Assembly (NCBI GenBank): GCA_965220935.1
Contig: OZ244857.1
Location: 3,047,998-3,111,997 of the forward strand
Source: Rhodothermales bacterium
GTDB taxonomy: Bacteria; Bacteroidota; Rhodothermia; Rhodothermales; Bin80
DNA: 64,000 nucleotides
Reading direction: 5' to 3'
Of this stretch, positions 17,815 through 52,127 are shown in pieces. A program made the position numbers and the translations under genes. The notes under the pieces are model-generated. The model did no database searches. It had not been told where the DNA came from and saw only the letters and a list, made by a program, of their open reading frames with translations. The first letter of the stretch is position 1, and each line of letters starts with the position of its first letter.

Positions 17815-18649
17815 CTGATATTTCGGCTACAGACGATATGTTCATTCGTGTTGAATGTGTGCAGAATAAAATCAAGGTTACTCCTTAGGTGCCGGGATAG
17901 AGCTATCAGTTTATGAGTCATGTATCGCATTTGGGTTTAAGATAATCAAAGATTGACTATTGACTACGTACAAATCGTCCAGTATACACCGAAACTCCTG
18001 CGGTTGAGATTGCTTTTAATGGGTAGACGTAAACTCCTGCTGATAGTGTAATTTCAGTTAAATGAATTTCGCGATTCCAACCTGCTGACAGATCAAGTGG
18101 TGAATGCGAGTATACCCGACGCCCAGTCAAATCAAAAACTTCAACTTCTACGCGCGCCGTCCGTGGTAAATCAACACGCAGTTTTGTGGAACGATTAAAA
18201 GGATTCGGATAGTTTGAGTGTACAACGAATTCTGTTGGTAGGGATTCAAATACCTGAGATGATACTGGAGAGACTATTTCAATAGTGAACATCAAACTAT
18301 CATAAGATCCATTTGTATCTGTAGCACGATAGATCATCTGTACGGGTGGTGTCACATGGGTTGGAGTTCCATCAATAGTGCGATTCGTTACATCAAATCG
18401 GAGTCCAGATGGAAGATCACTACTGTTAAGGAAGTATTGAATTGGAGGTGCTCCCGAGTCCAGTGCGGGTAACACCAAAGGAGCAATCGGAAGTGCACGG
18501 GGATAAGATTGGGGAGCAATCTCACTGGAAAACGAGACAGTACATGTGTTCCCACTCACATACAAAATACTGTTTAACCAATTTTGAAACTCTGGACTTG
18601 GTGGTGAACATAAACCTAAATTTGAATCAAAATGCAGATTTTTAATATT

Positions 18650-19560
18650 TTTAAGTTGTAAAAAGCTTTGAGGTAGTACACCCGTCAACTGGTTACTTGA
18701 TATCCATAAATTTCTCAAATTAGATAGGTTACCGAGTTCTGGGGGAATCTCACCCGTTAACTGATTATTTCCCAGACTTAAATGTTCCAAACTATCGAGG
18801 CTACCGAGTTCTGGGGGAATCTTACCCGTTAACTGGTTGGCGTGCAGACTTAAATTTTCCAAATTAGATAGGTTGGCGAGTTCTGGGGGAATTTCACCCG
18901 TCAACTGGTTTACGAACAGCCATAAATCATCCAAATTAGAGAGGTTACCGAGTTCAGCAGGAATCTCACCCGTTAATTGATTAGTTTGCAGCCTTAAAGT
19001 TTCCAAATTAGATAGATTACCGAGTTCAGCAGGAATCTCACCCGTTAACTGATTATTTCCCAGCCTTAAAATTCTCAAATTAGATAGGTTGCCGAGTTCT
19101 GGGGGAAATTCGCCAGTCAACTGGTTACTGTTTAGATACAACTTTTCCAACTTAGAGAGGTTACCGAGTTCAACAGGAATCTCGCCCGTCAAGTGGTTGC
19201 CGTACAGCCATAAATTTTCCAACTTAGAGAGGTTACCGAGTTCAGCAGGAATCTCGCCCGTTAACTGGTTATCATATAGACTTAACTGCCAGAACTGAGA
19301 CAGGCTTCCGAGTTCAGCAGGAATCTCACCCGTTAACTGATTATTTCCCAGACTTAAAGTTTTCAAATTAGATAGATTACCGAGTTCAGCAGGAATCTCA
19401 CCCGTTAATTGATTATAAGCCAGACTTAAAGTTTCCAAATTAGATAGGTTGCCGAGTTCAGCAGGAATCTCGCCCGTCAACTAGTTATGGTTCAGCCTTA
19501 AAGTTTCCAAATTAGATAGGTTGCCGAGTTTGGGGGGAATCTCACCAACTAGGTTGTTGT
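18650..19560 (-). repeat. About 15 tandem 72-nt (24-aa) coding repeats, leucine-rich repeats of the LGNLSNLxxLxLxxNQLTGEIPxE type
   Basis: The 72-nt periodicity is visible in the DNA (..gttaccgagttcagcaggaatctcacccgttaactg..) and in the protein. Confidence 0.85.
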
Positions 19561-20729
19561 TTGTCATTCGTATTGAGATTTCTCCATCTCTGGTATATAT
19601 CCCATACCATTGATTAAAGTCATCCTTATTCTGTGGGATTTGATCTTTATCCCACCCAGAATTGTCCGTCCACTGATCTCCATTGGTGGATGTATATAAC
19701 GCAATAAGACTCTCGTGAATTGCCCTTGCAGAAGTACCAATAGTGATATTGAAATAAAGGGATATCGTATTTAAGTTAGAATCCCGTACTGTATAGATAT
19801 ATTCAGAATGTCTCGTACTAGTTGTTGGTATACCCGAAAGAGTTCTTGTACTGGGATCAAAACTTAATCCTTCAGGCAACTCGGGAGAGATCGTGTATGT
19901 TAATGGTTTTTGTCCACCAATTAACTCAGGCAATTGAATTTCAAAGGACACACCTAAAGAAAGATCCAGAGTTTCAATAGGAGCAGTGAATGTAAATGTT
20001 TCAATTTGGTTAGTATTGATTGCCCATACACCCCGACCATGTGTTCCTAGTATGATCTCATCATCTCGGATTTTCATTTGCCAAATAGCAACGGGAGGCA
20101 GGCCGTCATCAACATAATGCCAAGACTGACCACGATCTGTGGATCGAAATAGACCAATTTCTGTTCCAACCCAGAGTGTATTTGGTGCGTGGGGCATGAC
20201 GATCATATCGTATACAGCTACATCTGGAAACCCATTATTACTTTCGTGATTATTTCCAAATCCTGATAAATCAGTCCAGGTCTCTCCGTAGTCTCAAGTC
20301 TCTATAATCTTTGGATGATTGGGGGCGGAAAAGAGTGCATATGCGGTGGCAGGCTCATGAGGATGGGTAGCCAAACCAGATGCAACATAGCTCAACTTAA
20401 ATTTTTTCAGCTCTGGAATTTGAGAATAAGAGTTTCCACGATCTTTTGATTTATAGCCCTGGCCTGTTTCTGATCCACAAAGAATCCAAATTACCGATGG
20501 ATTTGCCTTAGAAACTTCAATTTTAGTGTAACTTCTGCAGGTCAAATTCAAAGGAGTATGATACCAAGTATCTCCAAAATCTCGAGAGTAATAGACTCCA
20601 TCTGACTTCGTAGTGTATACTTCATTAGGAGACAGATCACTACTTGCCAAATTCGTAAAGAACTGGCCGTTCTCTGTATCCCGGGACATTACTGGTGAAA
20701 ATGAATGATCACCATCAGTACTTTTATAG

Positions 20730-22125
20730 GGGAATTATATACGTGAGTAACCATCTATTAGACGACTACCTGTTGCGTATCCATTTCACGGATCATAGGA
20801 GTTCCTAACGGAAACGCTCCTCCACGTGCAGATGCCCCAATCCCGGAGGCCTGTAATACATTCGCAGATGCATTGATATCTGCGTGATCCGTATGGCCAC
20901 ATGCCATACACTCAAATTTACTTTGTGTCTTACGGTTGACTTTATCTGTATGACCACACTGGTTACAGCGTTGACTGGTATACTTCGGATCAACAAGAAT
21001 CACGTTGCCGAACTTGTAATCGCAATAAGTATTGAACCGCCCCCATCCAGCGTTCTGTATGACGCGGTTCAACCCCGCCTTCGCCCTCACATTGGTTCCA
21101 GGGTTCTCAACCGTGCCCTTAGCGGACTTGGACATGTTCTTGATCTTCAAGTCTTCACGTTTCAACGTATACGCCTTATTGGACAATCTACGGCTATGTT
21201 GATGTGCCGCATTCGTTCTGCAATTCTTCTGTTTTCGCTTCCACTTGTTGATTTTTCGCAAGGATCTACCAGATCCTTTCTGCTGTCGGGCTAACTTTCT
21301 TTGCCACCGACGAATCTTAATCTCCTTATCCGTTAAGTCAGGGATCGGTAACATGCCCTGTTCACCATCCGTTGAGGAATAAGAAATGTTATAGGTATTC
21401 AAGTCAATGCCAATCTCTTTGCCATCGTCCACCTTCTCTGGTAGATTAGTGACTTTGTAAATTACGCTCATCTTCCAGTACCGTCCGTCTTTCTTCACGG
21501 TGACTTCAATCGGCTCACCGTCTGGATAAGGATTACCTCCTTTCCTACGAAACTTCACCCAGCCAATCTTCTGGATATAGACATCATTCCCTCGGATCTT
21601 AAACAATCCTTTGGTCGCCGTAAACGAATTGTGTTGAAACCGATTATGGAACGTAGGATGATCACGTAATCCCTTGAAGAAAGCCTGCCACGCCTCTGCC
21701 TGATGCTTTAAGGTGTTTCGTACAATGTTGGACGAATACCGATTCAACCAAGAAATGGTTGGGCGAAAAGAAGTGTATCTCCTACTTAATGACGGCCAGG
21801 TCAATTCTGGATTATCCTTATGTTCGTCTTTATAGTCCCTGTTGATTTGGTCAAGAAACGTATTCCATACAAACCTACATGCTCCACAAAGACCTGACAA
21901 GAGATGGGCTTTCCACTGCGTGCCGGGTAATAGACGATACTCTATTCCACGATAGGAACAGTTTGAACCCGAAGGGTTAGAAGCCTTTTGAACAGGCATG
22001 ATATCAAGGTTACGTTGGTGTTATGGTAAGCAATAGGGTAGACTGCGTATCTATCCTATTGTGTCTGTTAAACTTTGCCAAAATAGAATGGTTCCATTCT
22101 TTGGGTACTCACGTATATAATTCCC
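20730..22125 (-). mobile_element. IR-bounded 1396-bp element carrying only tnpB, flanked by the 8-bp TSD TTTTATAG
   Basis: The IRs are GGGAATTATATACGTGAGTAACC (20730-20752) and, as revcomp of 22103-22125, GGGAATTATATACGTGAGTACCC. The direct repeat TTTTATAG lies at 20722-20729 and 22126-22133. The host frame is restored on conceptual excision. Confidence 0.8.
20758..21999 (-). CDS. tnpB: TnpB-type RNA-guided endonuclease (OrfB_IS605 / OrfB zinc-ribbon family), apparently intact
   Basis: The RuvC triad candidates are GIDLN, LKREDLKIKNM and HADINASANV. The zinc ribbon is CNQCGHTD...CMACGHTD. The N-terminus YRLLPGTQ...CGACRFVWN is TnpB-like. Confidence 0.85.
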   Translation of the reverse strand: MPVQKASNPSGSNCSYRGIEYRLLPGTQWKAHLLSGLCGACRFVWNTFLDQINRDYKDEHKDNPELTWPSLSRRYTSFRPTISWLNRYSSNIVRNTLKHQAEAWQAFFKGLRDHPTFHNRFQHNSFTATKGLFKIRGNDVYIQKIGWVKFRRKGGNPYPDGEPIEVTVKKDGRYWKMSVIYKVTNLPEKVDDGKEIGIDLNTYNISYSSTDGEQGMLPIPDLTDKEIKIRRWQRKLARQQKGSGRSLRKINKWKRKQKNCRTNAAHQHSRRLSNKAYTLKREDLKIKNMSKSAKGTVENPGTNVRAKAGLNRVIQNAGWGRFNTYCDYKFGNVILVDPKYTSQRCNQCGHTDKVNRKTQSKFECMACGHTDHADINASANVLQASGIGASARGGAFPLGTPMIREMDTQQVVV

Positions 22126-23385
22126 TTTTATAGATTCCAGAGTATTGAGTCGTTCCAAGTACCAGATCAGAATTGGTTTTATGCCAGACTGCATCAAATC
22201 CGTCGCCTCCTATGACATGTTCCCAATAACTATCAGATTCTGGATCATGTTGGGACAGGGAGGTTCCATTATCCTGAGTTCCACCAATATATATAGATTC
22301 GCCAGGCTTCTTTGCGATTCCATAAAATTGAGATGTATTATAGCCAGAATTGTTCCTATCCAATTCATCAAAATATCGTCCCTTGTTTTCAGAAATTGCC
22401 ACCCCTCCGTCATTTGTATTAAATATCCAAAACTTCTCATTGAGAGAGTCTACTACAAATGGTTGAATAACATGGTGATCAACATGGGCTGCTTGATCAA
22501 CATTAACTCCCCAATCTATAATACGTGTGGGCGACCCATTATGCGAGTCTGTAACGATAATACGATTCATGGTTACACCCCCAACGAGCACTATATTCGG
22601 ATCAAAAGGATGAACAGCAAGACAGTTATTATGATATCCTTGTTGTCGCATCCAATTAACAGGCTCGGATGACCGATCAATTGTTAAGATCCAACTTTTC
22701 CCTGCATCATAACTTTTGTAAAGATTCGAAATCCTATCTTGGTATACCGCTGCGTAGGCAATCTGTGGATTCGAAGGTGAAAAAGCTAATTCTGCACGGT
22801 GCACCGAATGTCCAAATGGATCGTGCACTCTCGTCCAATTGAGTCCACCATCAACGGAATAGTATGAGTGATTATGAAATCTACCTGATGCTGCAATTTG
22901 CATATTAAAATTATCAGGCTGCGAAAGTAAGCTAACAATCTCTGCCCGCCATCCACAGCACACACGAGTCCAAGTAGATCCGCCATCTTGCGTACGAAAT
23001 ACCCTCTGTTGGTACCTGCAATTACCACATTTGGGTCACTTGGATCAACTAATAGTCGATATACATCTTGAAAGTTTTTGTTTCCAAACGTTGATTGTAA
23101 ATGCTCCCATCTTACTCCTCGATCGCTGGTTCGAAAAATTCCATAACCAAAACTAGAAAAATCCTCTCCCCAAGCCGACCCGCCTGTGCCAAGATACATT
23201 AGGAATTATATACGTGAGTAACCAAACTTTAGAAAGGGCTTCCCCAGCGCCATAATTAGCTGTTTTTTTATTTTTTCTTGAGCGTTCTCGGGGGTGTGTT
23301 CATGATGATCTTCGCAAAGTCCCCCGGATGCATTGGGATATATCCACTAAGGCTACTCAGATCCTTTGGAGGCCGACCGCGCGGC

Positions 23386-24184
23386 TTACTGGCTTTCTTC
23401 TTGGGGGGTGCAGGTTTCGGTTTGTTGGTTGAGTTCATAATATTTGAATCTCTTGAAATAATTATCTATCTCATCTTGCATATCTATTCCAGCTCTTCGA
23501 AAAGAATTTAACAGGTTTTGGTATGCGTTTTCTCCGCCGAGAAAATTCCAAAATTCCTCAGCGACCTTTATTTCAGCATCCAAATCAATCATTCCAGCCA
23601 TTGTCCACCGTTCATATGGTTTGGGATCATAGGGGTTATAAGGGATGGCAAGGTAAGATTGAACTTTTGCATCTGGATTTTTATATAGAAACCCACTCCA
23701 AAAGAGTTCGCTTAAAATCCTTGAAATTACTCTTATTGGGTTTGACTGTTTTGAGATCAAATAAGTGGAATACTCCATAATGATCTTGGACGGCCAAGTC
23801 AACCTTTACAGGCTTTGATGTGACAATTTCCCCCTGTGTGCAAACCGATCTGATTCTCTCAATCTCCTTGTTTTTATTGGGATTGGCTCCACCAGATAAG
23901 GTATCAATAATTTCTTGGATTACGGATTGTGCCTCTTTCGAAATATGTTCCCCAACAATATATTGCTCTTTGACAAAGGGGAAATGAGGTGTAGCAAGAG
24001 CTTCAGCAGCTGGTTGGAATATTGAAGTTCCAAATGTAGTGTTAAGAGAATGAATAAAAGAAAAAAGTGCCATCCTATCCTCACCTAACAATCTGTGATG
24101 AAATGGTTTATGCTTGGTCTTAGGTTTATATGATGCAAATTTCTTCCGTAAACTCTTCTTAATAATGTCTTCAATGTTTGTCAT
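23386..24184 (-). pseudogene. Type II restriction endonuclease (TdeIII-like by recollection) with one frameshift
   Basis: Track ORFs 23681..24184 and 23386..23802 are two frames of one gene. The join is at ..FKRTLLEWVSI* / ..YKNPDAKVQSYLAIPYNPYDPKPYERW within tctatataaaaatcc (~23690-23705). A D...DLK pattern is present (KVDLAV...LFDLKTVKPN). The gene starts 9 nt after the MTase stop. Confidence 0.55.
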
Positions 24185-24193
24185 GATATCCTA

Positions 24194-25822
24194 TCAACGC
24201 ATATGGAATATAGTCTCTGAATACGCGGCTTTATCCTTTTCTGTTCGATTGAGAACTGGTCGCTTATACTTATTCAGTATTTCCATTCCAGCCAACTTTG
24301 CAATTTCGGGATAAAGTTCGTACTTATCATTTGCGACTAAAAATACGTTGTAATTATCTGAAAAATATTTTTTGCAATTTAGCAAGACAGTAGATATAGA
24401 TTCAACATAGGTTTTTCTGGCCATCATTCCCTGTCCTTGAGAGAGTGGGCCTATTTCTTTTTCGTCACTTCGAGGATAGTTGAAAAGTTCATAGGCGTAT
24501 GCGTGTTGTTCATGATAATCAATTAGGCCAACATAGGGAGGACTTGTAAATATCCCCTGTATTCCCCGGTCATGAATTAAATCTTTGAATTGTTTATGTT
24601 TACTCCCAAGTGCATTTACTATATCAACATTTCTGGAATCTCCTTGTAAGCAATGTTGGTAGGTATGGGTTCTGATTCTATCAAATGAATGTAGGCGTGT
24701 TAAAGTATCTTGACTATATCTTTTCCACCATGATCTCACTGAAAATAGAGGCTTACATATTTTCCCATGTTTTCTGCAATAATACGGAGCAGTCACGGGT
24801 TTCTTTAATGTAGCTAAATCAGAATGCCTTGTAGCACGGCAGGAGCGAACAGTTCGACTCAGAATGACTTCCAGTACTTTTCTGGTATTTAGACAATTAA
24901 CTTTTTCTATCTGAGTAAAAAGAAAATCTATCTCAGACAGAACTGGAGCTAAACACCATTTACATAGATACTCACGTGTATCTGTAAAATTATCATTTTG
25001 AATCTTAACTTGATATTTACTGATCAAGTCATTATAGATAGATAATATTTCCTTTTCTCGATCAACTGAGTATGCTTTTTCATCAATCTTTCCTGTACGA
25101 ATCAGTCTCTTAAATTCTGGCGATGGGTAGTGCAGCTTGTTAAACCCCTTTAAGACATCTGATAGCTCTAATTCAAATTTCACATTGCACTCATCAATTC
25201 CATGCTGAAAAAACAGTGAACTTATTCGATCAATTTCACTGCTCAATTTGACTATGTTATGCTTTGAAGTTTTGACGTTTGCTATGAGAGTGTTAAATAC
25301 TGATACATCAAGTCCAATAGCATGAATCCCCATCTCATTTGCTTGTACAAGTGTTGTACCGCTTCCACAAAATGGATCTAATACAATATCTCCCTCGCAA
25401 AAAAAGACTTCTTTTTTGTACTTATCAGTCTTTTGATCAAGAAAATACTCAACTAATTGTGGAATGAACTTCCCTTTGTAAGGATGAAGTCTATGTACGT
25501 GTTTAGTTGTGTCTTTTTCTCTAAGTGAGTCAAATGAAAGCCTCCAATTCAAATCCTGACCCAACTTGGATTTCCATTCAGATTCCTTGGAATCAACCTG
25601 ATCTTGATAATAATGTGCTAAATCTGCTAAACTTACATAAGTAGCCCTCTCGACAACGTATTTTTTGACACGGCCGTATTGCACCAAGTAAGATATGTTT
25701 GCAGGCGTGATTTCCCTTTTCAGGAATTTTGATGCCCATGAACTTGCTTGTTTAAGATCAACTAAATCTGATTTGTCCTTATTGGATTCAAAAAGAGAAG
25801 GAAGCATAGGATAAGGGTTCAT
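24194..25822 (-). CDS. N6-adenine/N4-cytosine DNA methyltransferase, alpha-like motif order (I ... TRD ... IV)
   Basis: Motif I is VLDPFCGSGTTLVQANEMG and motif IV is IFTSPPYVGLIDY, about 270 aa later. Its ATG overlaps the transposase stop (ATATGA at 25819-25824). Confidence 0.8.
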   Translation of the reverse strand: MNPYPMLPSLFESNKDKSDLVDLKQASSWASKFLKREITPANISYLVQYGRVKKYVVERATYVSLADLAHYYQDQVDSKESEWKSKLGQDLNWRLSFDSLREKDTTKHVHRLHPYKGKFIPQLVEYFLDQKTDKYKKEVFFCEGDIVLDPFCGSGTTLVQANEMGIHAIGLDVSVFNTLIANVKTSKHNIVKLSSEIDRISSLFFQHGIDECNVKFELELSDVLKGFNKLHYPSPEFKRLIRTGKIDEKAYSVDREKEILSIYNDLISKYQVKIQNDNFTDTREYLCKWCLAPVLSEIDFLFTQIEKVNCLNTRKVLEVILSRTVRSCRATRHSDLATLKKPVTAPYYCRKHGKICKPLFSVRSWWKRYSQDTLTRLHSFDRIRTHTYQHCLQGDSRNVDIVNALGSKHKQFKDLIHDRGIQGIFTSPPYVGLIDYHEQHAYAYELFNYPRSDEKEIGPLSQGQGMMARKTYVESISTVLLNCKKYFSDNYNVFLVANDKYELYPEIAKLAGMEILNKYKRPVLNRTEKDKAAYSETIFHMR

Positions 25823-26811
25823 ATTGCCCTTGAACCCCGTTTCGTTTTGCGTGTGAGTTGCTTGTAGGTGATCTCTTTATCAAACAACCCCTTCGCGGTC
25901 AATTCCATCTGCTTGATGGTGTCATATTCTCTGATATTATGCCGACCAGTAAACTCATTCACGTAGCGCTGTAAATGCTTGGGAGACATTCTGTGATACG
26001 TGCCATAGTAGCCACGCTTCAACAACGACCAGAAACTCTCCATGCCGTTGATATGGTCATCTCCGTCTACATATTCTTTAACCGAGTGCTTCACCGTTTT
26101 ATGCGCTGCCCTTTTGAGCGCTTGGTATCCTCTGAAATCATCTGTATAAGTTACAGCATCTTCCTTTGACGTACTGTTTACAAACTCTGCAAGGGTCTCG
26201 CCAGTCGTATCTGTAACTACTTTGGCTTGTACCTGCTTTGTCCCTCTATCCCTTGTTCCTACCACAGTCGTCTTGCCAACAGGCCCTCTACCTGTGCCTT
26301 CTAATTCCTTTCTCTTAGCATTACTCATATTCTTGCGCTTCCCGCCCACATAAGTTTCGTCTATCTCTACTTGGCCAAGAAACATCTTCATATCCTCTCT
26401 CCAGCTCTCACGGATCCGATGCGCCAGATACCAAGAACTCTTCTGCGTTATATTCAGATCACGGTGCATTTTCATACTGGACGCTCCCTTGATCCCTACA
26501 TTGAGAATATAGATTGCCAGTACCCAAATCTGATAATCCATTTTGGTATCTTCCATAACCGTTCCAACTCTCACACTGAAGAATTTACGACATTTTGGGT
26601 TTCTGCACCGGTAGTTCATGGAAGGATGCTTTGCGCCGACCTGAACATTGGTGCAACCACAATGAGGGCAAGTTGGAGTATTACCCCAGCGCTTCTTTGC
26701 AAACCACTTTTCAGCCGACTCACTATCAGGAAACATCTTCAAGAGTTTCACCCAAGAGATACCCGCCCGGTGGTATTGACCTGGTCCTGTCCGTTTCTTT
26801 GATTCTGACAT
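25819..26811 (-). CDS. IS1595-family DDE transposase (zinc-ribbon + ISXO2-like DDE domain), apparently intact
   Basis: It has the N-terminal Zn ribbon CPHCGCTN...CRNPKCRKFFSVRVGT. The catalytic-region motifs are VEIDETYVGG, TYTDDFRGYQAL and HINGMESFWSLLKR. Confidence 0.85.
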   Translation of the reverse strand: MSESKKRTGPGQYHRAGISWVKLLKMFPDSESAEKWFAKKRWGNTPTCPHCGCTNVQVGAKHPSMNYRCRNPKCRKFFSVRVGTVMEDTKMDYQIWVLAIYILNVGIKGASSMKMHRDLNITQKSSWYLAHRIRESWREDMKMFLGQVEIDETYVGGKRKNMSNAKRKELEGTGRGPVGKTTVVGTRDRGTKQVQAKVVTDTTGETLAEFVNSTSKEDAVTYTDDFRGYQALKRAAHKTVKHSVKEYVDGDDHINGMESFWSLLKRGYYGTYHRMSPKHLQRYVNEFTGRHNIREYDTIKQMELTAKGLFDKEITYKQLTRKTKRGSRAI

Positions 26812-26892
26812 TGTAAGTATGTGTTTGAATTAAATCCTTATGCGGACTTGGTTACTCAAAGTTCCAAAAATACATAGAATTTCTAAAATAAA

Positions 26893-27498
26893 TTAGGCGG
26901 GCGATTGCTGAACTTTGTTTTGACGAACTTTCGTTTTATTTGCATTGTAGTCGTCCAATTTTATCCATTTTATTGGAGACAAAAAAGGAGATAAAACTCC
27001 CCACTGCGCAAACATCTTTTGAACCCAATTTACATGCCACACCTCTTCCGTATATCCAAGAGATTCACAAAGCTCATTATGACTTATAATACTGGCAACC
27101 TCTAAGTCTGGTGGAGAATCTTGATCTATTTCCAGCCTTAATGCAAGAAAATGTTCAGCCATAGATTCGTCTTTCTTCTTTGATGTTGTCATTTTCATAT
27201 CTAAACGAATAAAATGCTTTGTCAAGATGTCATGAATTGCTGCCATTTTTCCGGGTTTATAGATCAAGTCCAGTGTAGAAATTAGAATAATTAGTACTGG
27301 AAAAACAAACTTATAAAATTCACCTTCTTGCGAAAATAAATAGCCAGAAATAGCTGTTAATACAATTATTAACAACGAAGTTACTTTAGAAAAAAACTCA
27401 TAATACCTTTGACGTGCACTATTGTATCTGGCTAATCTTTGAACATCAAATTGTACATCATCAAAATCTACATTTGAGCGATCCTTGAGTAGTGTCAT
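26893..27498 (-). CDS. Two-TM membrane protein, SLATT-like (tentative)
   Basis: An N-terminal helix (RLARYNSARQRYYEFF) is followed by two TM helices (VTSLLIIVLTAISGYLF, FVFPVLIILISTLDLIY) and a soluble tail. The layout resembles SLATT 2-TM effector domains from memory. Confidence 0.4.
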   Translation of the reverse strand: MTLLKDRSNVDFDDVQFDVQRLARYNSARQRYYEFFSKVTSLLIIVLTAISGYLFSQEGEFYKFVFPVLIILISTLDLIYKPGKMAAIHDILTKHFIRLDMKMTTSKKKDESMAEHFLALRLEIDQDSPPDLEVASIISHNELCESLGYTEEVWHVNWVQKMFAQWGVLSPFLSPIKWIKLDDYNANKTKVRQNKVQQSPA

Positions 27499-28266
27499 TT
27501 TTTAGGAGGCGGTTTTGGAGCAGGGTTATATTTTTGTCCAGATCCAGATCCTTTCCTTGTTCGAGTAGGGTTGCTTGGCCGATCTGGCTTAGGCTGTTTC
27601 CCCTTCTTGTTATTTTGTTGTTTTGCAATTACCAAACAACTAAATAACAATTAAATCCATTTACCGAAAGTTTGGTTACTCACGTATATAATTCCCATAC
27701 ATTACATCATGATTACTCTCGGCCATGGCTAACTACTCACATTCAAAGAGGGGAAATGATCGGTCTGAGGCTTCCAAGACCTGCCTCCGTCAGTGGTTTT
27801 CCACAATCCACCCGATACAGAACCTGCCCATATGGTCTCAAGCGTTGGGTCATCAGGATCAACAATCAGTGCTCGCGTTCGGCCTCCTACATTTCCAGGA
27901 CCGCGCTCAACCCAATTAAGTGGTTTAGAAGTTTTAGCCTGACTTAATGCCTTATTGAATTCTATGACTTGGTAGCCAATCGGGTACTCATTGCCACCAT
28001 TGATAGGTTGCCGAATAAGACGGTGGTATTCGGCATATTTATCGGGGTTGCCTTCCTCATTATCAAACAATTCATCCTCAGGAAGATGAGGTTTGTTATT
28101 AGATACAGACCAGATGGCAATCATTAGAAGGAAAATCACACCAGCCGCAATTGCGATGTGAATTGAACCCCGATTATTGAACATCACCAAAAACTACCAA
28201 ACAAATCTAATGCGGAAGTTCAAAAACCATCATCCGGCGATAACAATAAAACCACAGACGATGGCG

Positions 28267-28776
28267 TTATCTAATGATAGACTGAAACGATGATGAAACA
28301 GGATTTTCGGAGTGGGAATCAGGACTCTCAGGGCCGTCGTCAGTGGTATGATCCGTCCCACAGAATTGATCAAATGCGCGAACTAAATCAACGGCAATCG
28401 CCTCAGCACTGCGCCCCTCAATATGTCGGCGTTCAATCACATAAACCACATCTCCACCTTTGATGAGTGCCATAAATGGAGATGAAGGAGGAATTCCGAC
28501 TAGATGATGACGTGCAGTAGCCGTTGCATCAAGATCCTGTCCAGCAAATACCGTAACAATCTTGTCTGGCAGAGTCTTATTTTGTATTGCTAACCCAACC
28601 GCTGGCCGAGCCATCCCTGCAGCACATCCGCACACAGAATTAATTACCAAAAGCATGGTCTGATCCGACGACATATTGAATGCATCAGTGACTGCCTCAG
28701 ACGAGCGCAGTTCCTCAACCCCCAACCGCGTGAGTTCCTCGCGCATGGGTGTTACAAGATGTTCTGGGTAAGGCAT
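28267..28776 (-). CDS. BrxA/BrxB-family bacilliredoxin (DUF1094) with a C-terminal extension
   Basis: It contains PEHLVTPMREELT...LLVINSVCGCAAGMARP...TVFAGQD...PSSP. The CGC motif is present. Confidence 0.7.
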   Translation of the reverse strand: MPYPEHLVTPMREELTRLGVEELRSSEAVTDAFNMSSDQTMLLVINSVCGCAAGMARPAVGLAIQNKTLPDKIVTVFAGQDLDATATARHHLVGIPPSSPFMALIKGGDVVYVIERRHIEGRSAEAIAVDLVRAFDQFCGTDHTTDDGPESPDSHSENPVSSSFQSIIR

Positions 28777-51344: not shown

Positions 51345-51590
51345 GCAATAGTGAAAATTTCTTTAACCTCATAAGAGGTGCGATGTTGAGAGCATTTAAC
51401 CGCGATACTAGATTTATCTTACAGGGGACTCGGAAATTAAAGATCTATTTTAGATCTACAACTCAAAGAAATCAAACCTTGTATCAATACACTTGCAGTG
51501 ATTAGGATAACGCCACCGTTGCCGAAACCTCCATATCTGAAGGGTGTATACCATACTAAACGAAACCCAGTATCTCCGAACTTTTTATTT

Positions 51591-51785
51591 GGGAATTATA
51601 TAGATGATTACGCAAACCACCTATCCATTTGACGGGTTCTCGGAGTTCCTAACGGAAACGCTCCTCGCCGTCCATTCAACACCGCTAGTTTGTGCGGTAG
51701 ACATCGCCAATCCCGAACGTAACGCTCCAAATATACGATTTTTTCATAATAAAACAATTCATGCGTGATCATCTCTATAATTCCC
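51591..51785 (-). mobile_element. 195-bp MITE of the GGGAATTATATA family, flanked by the 8-bp TSD TTTTATTT
   Basis: The IRs are GGGAATTATATAGATGATTACGCA (51591-) and, as revcomp ending at 51785, GGGAATTATAGAGATGATCACGCA. The direct repeat TTTTATTT lies at 51583-51590 and 51786-51793. The interior segment 51622-51715 is homologous to the tnpB 3' end (20778-20845). Confidence 0.75.
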
Positions 51786-52127
51786 TTTTATTTCATCAAA
51801 TTAGGTTGCCTGATTAATTTGTATCTGACATTACATTATTCTAGTTTGCGGTATCAAGATAATCCCCAAATAGAATAAAATCGTGGAATGGTTATTTCGT
51901 ATTGATTCAACTTTTTGACTTGACTGATTATCCCGTGCAGATGCATTAGGTTGTTTTTCTAACATCATGAAAGGGATCATTTCTTTCACTCACAAGATTA
52001 ACCACGCATCAAAGGATTGTTTTTCCATTGACGCTCGTTATGCAGAGAAAAAGAAACTTTTTATCTGCCTAAGCATTACACTGGGCTACCTTTAATATAA
52101 CGCGTCAATCAAAACGCTTAATTCAAT

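Follow-up and report, generated by a model that had tools for sequence, protein, structure and literature searches.

A TnpB element with IS1595-type ends and a putative omega-RNA that includes one terminal repeat in a Rhodothermales genome

The TnpB element and its relatives

A stretch of 64,000 nucleotides from contig OZ244857.1 of a Rhodothermales bacterium (assembly GCA_965220935.1, positions 3,047,998 to 3,111,997), referred to below as the window, was analysed. The window contains a TnpB element of 1396 bp at positions 20730-22125, in which tnpB, the gene of a predicted RNA-guided nuclease, lies between terminal repeats of the type seen in the insertion sequence (IS) family IS1595. The following features were located at this element:

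20722..20729, no strand: 8-bp target-site duplication TTTTATAG (CTATAAAA in tnpB sense), located 3' of tnpB; the guide is predicted to begin with these 8 nt
20730..20752, minus strand: right-end inverted repeat GGGAATTATATACGTGAGTAACC, an IS1595-type end; 3' strand of the terminal stems of the putative omega-RNA
20758..21999, minus strand: tnpB, 413 aa; RuvC residues D199, E282 and D374 and the CxxC...CxxC zinc ribbon intact
22000..22102, minus strand: left-end untranslated region with hairpins at 22085-22100 and 22032-22060 and one sigma-70-like consensus match
22103..22125, plus strand: left-end inverted repeat of the TnpB cassette; reverse complement GGGAATTATATACGTGAGTACCC
22126..22133, no strand: 8-bp target-site duplication TTTTATAG, on the tnpB 5' side, a perfect match to the other copy

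The inverted repeats are 23 nt long and match at 22 of 23 positions, and the duplication is perfect; both had been described in an earlier reading of the bare sequence (the sequence-only reading) and were recovered at the same coordinates. A 22-nt pattern of the repeat occurred four times in the window, compared with 0.00 occurrences expected from 100 shuffles. Two of these copies are the ends of the TnpB element, and the other two bound a second element at 23202-27696. When positions 20730-22133 were removed in silico, the host sequence was rejoined in a single frame as ...GTTQYSGIYK / STDGDHSFSPV..., with STDGDHSFSPVMSRDTENGQ after the junction. The earlier claim that the host frame is rejoined was thus right locally and for one frame, but the host gene is not simply restored, as it contains further frameshifts and stops. 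Similarly, tnpB had been called the sole open reading frame (ORF) of the element. It is the only real gene, with 413 codons for amino acids, but two short, overlapping ORFs of 63 and 136 aa, both off-frame and mechanical, are also present. The stop codon of tnpB (20758-20760) lies 5 nt from the right repeat. A scan of the element for sigma-70 promoters and terminators gave counts not above those of shuffled sequences.

The check with hidden Markov models that had been proposed along with the sequence-only reading gave clear domain assignments. The 413-aa ORF matched the Pfam domains HTH_OrfB_IS605 (PF12323), OrfB_IS605 (PF01385, 1e-11) and Cas12f1-like_TNB (PF07282, 1e-15), and the ORF at 25819..26811 in the second element matched DDE_Tnp_IS1595. 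Residues D199, E282 and D374 and the four zinc-ribbon cysteines were conserved in an alignment of 14 diverse relatives, and the protein aligned to the ISDra2 TnpB structures 8h1j and 8exa over residues ~19-389. Judged from these domains and alignments, it is a full-length canonical TnpB for which guide-dependent cleavage is predicted only.

A total of 2373 TnpB homologues were found at E<=1e-10, and the nearest ones were multi-copy in genomes of 3-6 Mb. When an alignment built from diverse homologues was used to scan reference genomes, 80 loci were obtained, all in metagenome-assembled genomes (MAGs) of Rhodothermales. As an earlier automatic search for inverted repeats had run outward through palindromic flanks, the boundaries of the relatives were called with the terminal motif as an anchor. 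The related elements measured 1273-1472 bp, ended in GGGAMTTATAT, occurred in at least 9 MAGs and encoded TnpBs 44-95% identical. By the ISfinder end consensus GGnnATTAT they may belong to the ISNwi1 subgroup. The 8-bp duplications were perfect in about 40 loci and matched at 7/8 positions in 9 more, and all of them were different and AT-rich. One TnpB copy with 95% identity in another assembly had the same ends as the window element and a different duplication (TAAATTAT), and TnpBs with 44-47% identity, one of them in a MAG of the Gammaproteobacteria, also lay between GGGAMTTATAT ends and duplications of ~8 bp. Several of the assemblies with TnpB copies are circular long-read chromosomes.

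The tnpB ORF was intact in 70/79 loci. For 49 intact copies from one genome a dS of ~0.04 and a dN/dS of ~0.5 (nonsynonymous to synonymous substitution rates) were obtained, which indicates a recent expansion and some purifying selection. In genome OY760427 (5.9 Mb) at least 50 TnpB cassettes were present, compared with about 20 transposase genes.

Elements of the IS200/IS605 group encode a Y1 (HUH) TnpA and have subterminal hairpins, with neither terminal inverted repeats nor a target duplication. IS607 elements encode a serine-recombinase TnpA and likewise lack repeats and duplication. The window element differs from the former in its 23-nt repeats, its 8-bp duplication and the room for tnpB alone, the last of which also holds for about 50 relatives. 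It differs from the latter in that repeats and duplication are present and no second gene lies within the boundaries. There was no room for a second gene inside the boundaries of the window element or of the ~50 related copies, which bears out the earlier statement that a Y1 or serine recombinase is missing. Among the related copies none had IS605-type ends, and no intact copy without repeats was seen.

Ends shared with IS1595-family elements

The second element in the window is located 1.07 kb from the TnpB element and interrupts the same host gene:

23202-27696 (23194..27704 with duplications), minus strand: IS1595-family element with DDE transposase and 29-nt repeats, candidate autonomous partner
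25819..26811, minus strand: DDE transposase, 330 aa, with the Pfam domains DDE_Tnp_IS1595 (8e-40) and Zn_ribbon_IS1595

Its 8-bp duplication ATACATTA is present at 23194-23201 and 27697-27704. The sequence-only reading had given this element the same terminal 22-23 nt as the TnpB element. The common 22-nt pattern and the IS1595 transposase were confirmed, but the repeats of the second element are longer, with 29 nt, and perfect, and the outermost G is missing from the left copy. The IS1595 family makes 8-bp duplications and has GG-initiated terminal repeats (PMC8101967). The TnpB cassette has these features as well, and it has its GG-initiated repeats in common with the transposase-encoding element. 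No DDE_Tnp_IS1595 domain is encoded by the cassette itself, and the neighbouring gene at 25819..26811 has both the DDE and the zinc-ribbon domain. As its own transposase is absent, the cassette is non-autonomous.

Homologues of the window IS1595 transposase were found alongside the TnpB elements, within the same genomes. The IS1595 repeats of OY760427 (GGGAGTTATATRGCTGAGTG.CACGCG) matched the left end of the TnpB elements of that genome and not the window repeat; the ends of IS1595 and TnpB elements co-vary genome by genome. In a sister Rhodothermales genome an element with transposase and methyltransferase genes had the same ends and the duplication TTAAATAT. Outside these genomes, the 19-mer GGGAATTATATACGTGAGT bounded IS1595 elements, miniature inverted-repeat transposable elements (MITEs) with lengths of 49-483 bp and, in a few cases, TnpB elements on 50 contigs from unrelated metagenomes. 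Many of these elements had perfect 8-bp duplications, and their IS1595 transposases were 30-46% identical.

Ten loci of OY760427 contained an IS1595 transposase gene 1.4 kb upstream of tnpB. Seven of the ten were bounded by the outer IS1595 left repeat and the TnpB right repeat, in the order IS1595 left repeat, tnp, tnpB, TnpB right repeat over ~3.7 kb, and were flanked by perfect 8-bp duplications, all different (AATACTAT, TAAAGTAA, ATCTGTAA, ATATCATA, TATATAAT, TTAAATAG and TAACTTTA). As each of these compound copies has its own perfect duplication, the ~3.7-kb element must have transposed repeatedly with one end of each type. Of the evidence at the level of sequence, these seven copies argue most strongly that the TnpB end can serve as a substrate of the IS1595 transposase. 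Shared ends with 8-bp duplications at both elements, the co-variation of the ends between genomes, the compound copies and the presence of the 19-mer on IS1595 elements and MITEs all support the earlier proposal that the TnpB element may be mobilised in trans by a DDE transposase. Element 20730-22125 is very likely a mobile IS1595-type TnpB cassette.

At loci L050 (2282-5532) and L057 (2281-5531) another IS, with a 451-aa DDE_Tnp_1-like ORF, is nested in the TnpB right end. Only the terminal ~18 nt of the right repeat are left there, and the two copies have different perfect duplications. Consequently, ~18 nt are enough for transposition, and the RNA region at the right end is dispensable for it.

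In the OY760427 cassettes L028-L080 (locus 2281-2483) the left end consists of a MITE of ~172 bp fused to an older left end, and the cassettes of this genome contain a second repeat-like copy, GGGAGTTATATAYCACAGTGCC, 22 nt ahead of the ATG. The fused MITE and the inner repeat copy show a repeated switch to a new outer end. Two further duplication-flanked TnpB cassettes of ~3.4 kb (L008 360-3729 and L038 355-3738) contained transposase-like ORFs between the left end and tnpB. These are fragments of 292, 141 and 154 aa in L008 and an ORF of 484 aa in L038, and they belong to unrelated nested ISs of IS-rich, symbiont-type genomes.

The remaining genes of the second element and the host gene are as follows:

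23386..24184, minus strand: TdeIII-type restriction enzyme, frameshifted into two ORFs (23681..24184 and 23386..23802)
24194..25822, minus strand: N6/N4 DNA methyltransferase, 542 aa, intact; overlaps the transposase stop codon
26893..27498, minus strand: ORF of 201 aa between transposase and right repeat; looks hydrophobic/membrane-like
~17957-28190, minus strand: host gene, a decayed pseudogene, with a BNR/sortilin-like N-terminus, leucine-rich repeats and a C-terminus of the type IX secretion system type

The restriction-modification genes are cargo of the IS1595 element. In a related element of a sister genome (L144, 3378-6249) their place is taken by a methyltransferase-HNH fusion. The 201-aa ORF had no significant Pfam match. 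The host gene contains two more frameshifts (~22790-22960 and ~27720) and in-frame TGA (20294-20296) and TAG (19481-19483) codons, and because of these it is considered a decayed pseudogene. Removal of both elements in silico gave no single long host ORF; the frame was restored locally only.

RNA structure at the right end and target-site bias

A conserved RNA fold was found at the right end of the TnpB element, and a shortened form of it was found in a MITE elsewhere in the window:

20730..20910, minus strand: putative omega-RNA scaffold, ~180 nt with 7 helices; covariance model R1, 128.7 bits; overlaps the tnpB 3' end
20844..20839, minus strand: invariant loop GGGAUU of the putative omega-RNA, from the RNA fold
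20780..20776 with 20743..20739, minus strand: helix 7 of the putative omega-RNA, from the RNA fold
51591-51785 (51583..51793 with duplications), minus strand: MITE of 195 bp with duplication TTTTATTT and IS1595-type ends GGGAATTATATAGATGATTACGCAA / GGGAATTATAGAGATGATCACGCAT

The fold was derived with RNAalifold from an alignment of sixteen diverse tnpB 3' ends. The alignment contained nucleotide-invariant stretches within the coding region and clear compensatory changes. Over 37 base pairs, 98.3% of the cells were paired and 14 pairs had changes on both sides, a result obtained in 0/500 shuffles, and slid controls gave at most 5. The covariation was found again with 19 sequences, in which three distant lineages were included. 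One helix joins the sequence right after the conserved CCGTGAAATGGAT to positions ~10-14 of the right repeat. When each subfamily was folded separately, the inner half of the repeat was always paired with the tail of the ORF and the pairing shifted with the repeat of the subfamily: AUACG/CGUAU in the window, AUAUUUGG/CCAAAUAU in L014 and GAUCUGAA/UUUCAGAU in L015. The comparison of these sequences shows that the right repeat has a second role within the putative guide-RNA scaffold. It also supports the earlier suggestion that an omega-RNA would have to read through the repeat, since the right repeat belongs to the covarying fold, whose end coincides with the element boundary.

The last ~9 nt of the element (AUAAUUCCC) were unpaired in the folds. 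A hypothetical pseudoknot would join them to the invariant loop GGGAUU, which lies ~100 nt upstream, and in two lineages a loop GGGACU is accompanied by the terminus AAGUCCC. In the right-element RNAs (reRNAs) of TnpB the 3' end of the scaffold forms a pseudoknot with a loop at about -130 (PMC10711439). Single-sequence folding of the window 3' region gave a stability not significantly above that of shuffles (z = -1.4), so that the structural support comes from covariation and not from energy. An Rfam scan of positions 20000-28500 at E<=1 returned no omega-RNA or IS605-orfB family and only a chance match to a CRISPR direct repeat. Among repeat-containing metagenome contigs, model R1 detected TnpB-bearing loci only; IS1595-only ends scored ~18-21 bits. 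The conserved structure is likely to be a functional omega-RNA. As the scaffold ends at the element boundary, the guide would consist of the duplication and the downstream flank (CTATAAAAGTACTGAT... in the window copy).

The MITE at 51591-51785 has kept the 3' ~90 nt of an omega-RNA-like scaffold on its minus strand (R1 67.5 bits, E 9e-16). Judged from its ends and the match to R1, it is a TnpB-less, guide-RNA-only deletion derivative of a different, related cassette subfamily.

The base directly 5' of the left duplication in tnpB sense was G in 47/54 copies (p ~4e-20); the scored copies include 46 cassette copies and 7 compound copies. A two-fold symmetric transpososome is expected to have a palindromic target preference. 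No mirrored C was present after the right duplication copy in the same scored copies. Their duplications never started with G and had A/T at positions 2, 3, 7 and 8, and duplications were AT-rich at positions 1-3 and 6-8. In RNA-sense orientation the MITE at 51591-51785 also has G at -1. In the proposed geometry, the G at -1 of the cassettes sits where a target-adjacent motif (TAM) would end in the empty site, and it may be TAM-like or TAM-related.

Interpretation and comparison with known systems

The findings as a whole are probably best explained by a non-autonomous cassette of the IS1595 family with an intact tnpB and its putative omega-RNA as sole cargo. An IS1595-type DDE transposase would bind the terminal repeats of ~18-23 nt and insert the cassette through an 8-bp staggered cut. 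The transposase could come from another element, for example the neighbour at 23202-27696, or act in cis if a transposase-bearing IS and a cassette move together on the outermost ends. The conserved RNA structure starts where tnpB encodes the zinc ribbon and continues to the final base of the element, with the inner half of the right repeat as the 3' strand of the terminal stems. A transcript running on into the flank would then have the 8-bp duplication and the downstream host sequence as its guide. With this guide the TnpB-omega-RNA complex might cut the unoccupied site, composed of left flank, one duplication copy and right flank, and recombination with an occupied copy might restore or spread the cassette. 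Such restoration or spread would account for the excess of TnpB cassettes over transposase genes, and the G 5' of the left duplication could be part of the TAM. A role in homing or retention, together with this reading of the TAM, is proposed tentatively and has somewhat less than an even chance of being correct.

A more far-reaching possibility is that a TnpB lineage was rebuilt on an IS1595 end. In the DNA the same ~23 nt would then be the site that the transposase binds and cleaves, and in the omega-RNA they would make up the terminal stem and the pseudoknot; the guide would start with the duplication, and the asymmetric G would be the TAM. This is conceivable, and we regard it as rather doubtful. 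If true, the target choice of the transposase (or the survival of insertions) and the specificity of the nuclease would have co-evolved, and a transposon that makes duplications would nevertheless home. The system would be a prokaryotic counterpart of Fanzor, and an IS1595/Merlin partner would be new to TnpB.

Several observations weigh against the main explanation or limit it. The boundaries in the window were set by the duplications and the local restoration of the host frame, and an empty site was not recovered from a sister genome. The window's own subfamily has T, T, T and C at -1, that is no G; close IS1595 elements without TnpB had G at this position in 2/5 cases, and the distant metagenomic elements, with eight sites, showed no such bias, both sets being small and heterogeneous. 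The G may therefore be a property of particular transposase or TnpB lineages. The dN/dS of 0.5 indicates moderate constraint only, as estimated from the substitutions, and in the majority form of the candidate pseudoknot (GGGAUU with ...UCCC) the variable position is a U.U. The copies L050 and L057 show that mobility and RNA function are separable, and omega-RNA function is putative; the omega-RNA, its guide and the TAM are predictions from sequence. Finally, cut-and-paste transposition by a DDE transposase already leaves a double-strand break, and because of this the benefit of restorative homing by TnpB is less obvious. The same doubt about restorative homing of DDE elements is raised in a 2026 review (PMC13565253).

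Two other explanations concern the origin of the arrangement. Errors of assembly or annotation might have produced it, as the window comes from a MAG in which repeats could be mis-assembled and the host gene is full of frameshifts. The host frame is restored exactly, and ~50 copies with different duplications come from assemblies made independently, among which several are circular long-read chromosomes. An artefact, which the sequence-only reading had also considered, therefore has a negligible probability. A TnpB-only element of the IS200/IS605 type (IS1341-like) might instead have landed by accident inside an IS1595 MITE, so that repeats and duplication would be those of the MITE and the TnpB element would have IS605-style ends of its own further in. 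Switching of ends and nesting do occur, as in the 172-bp MITE at the left end in OY760427 and in the other ISs within copies; the left untranslated region contains hairpins, and a capture of this kind is plausible as the evolutionary origin. As an account of the present element it is very unlikely, as no more than 5 nt lie between stop codon and repeat, the RNA fold makes use of the repeat and covaries with it, and the architecture is shared by TnpBs of 44-95% identity from several phyla-level MAG groups, among which no copy with IS605-type ends and no intact copy without repeats was found.

The other two alternatives concern function. TnpB could be a passive or repurposed passenger, for example a nuclease-independent, TldR-like regulator or a factor of defence or addiction, that contributes nothing to maintaining the element, and the cassettes would be MITE-like parasites of IS1595. 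The RNA region is unnecessary for transposition in L050 and L057, IS1595 elements here often bear unrelated cargo such as restriction-modification genes, and a cut-and-paste DDE element needs restorative homing less. Unlike in TldR-type derivatives, however, the whole clade has kept the RuvC triad and the zinc ribbon intact. Most ORFs are intact with a dN/dS <1, strong selection on structure acts on the guide-RNA-like scaffold, which always adjoins the variable flank, and the TnpB cassettes of OY760427 (at least 50) outnumber the transposase genes (~20). We consider a passive role improbable. In a geometry like that of Fanzor the duplication would be absorbed into the scaffold, the guide would begin after it, and the AT-rich duplication would be the TAM. 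This would agree with the description of Fanzor1/Fanzor2* reRNAs in transposons that have inverted repeats at their termini (TIRs) and duplications of the target site (TSDs), and the duplications here are AT-rich at positions 1-3 and 6-8, as many TnpB TAMs are AT-rich. An 8-nt duplication whose sequence varies, however, cannot act as an invariant part of the scaffold, the last base of the element is reached by both the conserved structure and the candidate pseudoknot, and the sole strongly asymmetric position is -1, outside the duplication. This geometry is unlikely, although slightly less so than a passive role.

For the question of how nucleases of the TnpB/Fanzor type benefit transposons other than IS605 and IS607, this family is a compact system from nature in which recent copies are numerous. 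Side by side it has the transposase-only IS, the compound element of transposase and TnpB, the solo TnpB cassette and the omega-RNA-only MITE. The sharp, duplication-defined ends and the fold over the transposase site make the start of the guide, the TAM and the effect of TnpB on retention testable. The ~410-aa TnpBs with a defined scaffold also form a new group for screens of editing tools. Beyond the first observation, the analysis has added the joint use of both ends, the compound, solo and RNA-only forms, the covariation of a repeat within the scaffold and the asymmetric G.

The main text of Altae-Tran et al. 2023 in PNAS (PMC10691335) describes six DDE-associated TnpB branches (DDE-1 to DDE-6) with inverted terminal repeats and tnpB near one end, together with solo TnpBs that share these ends and are, in its words, 'mobilized by transposases in trans'. 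As in the window, TnpB lies in an inverted-repeat transposon with the 3' end of tnpB near the transposon end, solo copies share their ends with transposase-bearing copies, and trans-mobilisation was inferred. The sequence-only reading had left these branches out of its established knowledge, and the novelty it implied was overstated. The DDE partners given in the 2026 review (PMC13565253) are ISL2, IS630 and IS1031, and the associations are described there as rare in prokaryotes and mechanistically unexplained. The partner found here is IS1595 (DDE_Tnp_IS1595 with an N-terminal zinc ribbon and an 8-bp duplication), in contrast to the IS630, ISL2 and IS1031 named there. Nothing on point was found in the literature on TnpB with IS1595, ISXO2 or Merlin, a search that did not extend to the PNAS supplement. 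The concept of TnpB in a DDE transposon is thus already published, and IS1595 as the partner is apparently undescribed. It is possible that the window clade is identical with one of DDE-1 to DDE-5, with which it was compared by main-text description only. Beyond what that main text contains, covariation of the repeat in the fold, compound copies of transposase and TnpB, a MITE bearing an omega-RNA-like scaffold and the asymmetric G(-1) were found here.

Like ISs, mobile insertion cassettes and MITEs of the IS1595 family, in which passenger genes are common, the window cassette has an 8-bp duplication and GG-initiated repeats. Unlike typical IS1595 derivatives, its passenger is an RNA-guided nuclease, with a putative guide RNA fused to one transposon end. 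With the TnpB-only elements of IS200/IS605 (IS1341 group) and with ISDra2 it has in common a canonical TnpB, an omega-RNA, here putative, over the 3' end of the gene and a scaffold that ends at the boundary; a pseudoknot of the 3' terminus with a loop ~100 nt upstream is plausible. In contrast to IS200/IS605, the window element is without a Y1 TnpA, has terminal repeats instead of subterminal hairpins and makes an 8-bp duplication. As a duplication is made, the guide would open with sequence that is duplicated, and the TAM would be found on the far side of the other copy.

Merlin transposons are the eukaryotic relatives of IS1595, and no report of a Fanzor on Merlin was found in the literature. 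Fanzor1 and Fanzor2* occur on TIR/TSD transposons of eukaryotes (Bao & Jurka 2013, PMC3627910; Yoon et al. 2023, PMC10711439). As in the window, the nuclease is carried by DDE-type, often non-autonomous transposons, and the terminal repeat lies within the guide-RNA scaffold. The window system differs from Fanzor in being bacterial, in its canonical position of the RuvC-II glutamate and in its longer, variable duplication, which, in contrast to Fanzor, is probably part of the guide and not of the scaffold.

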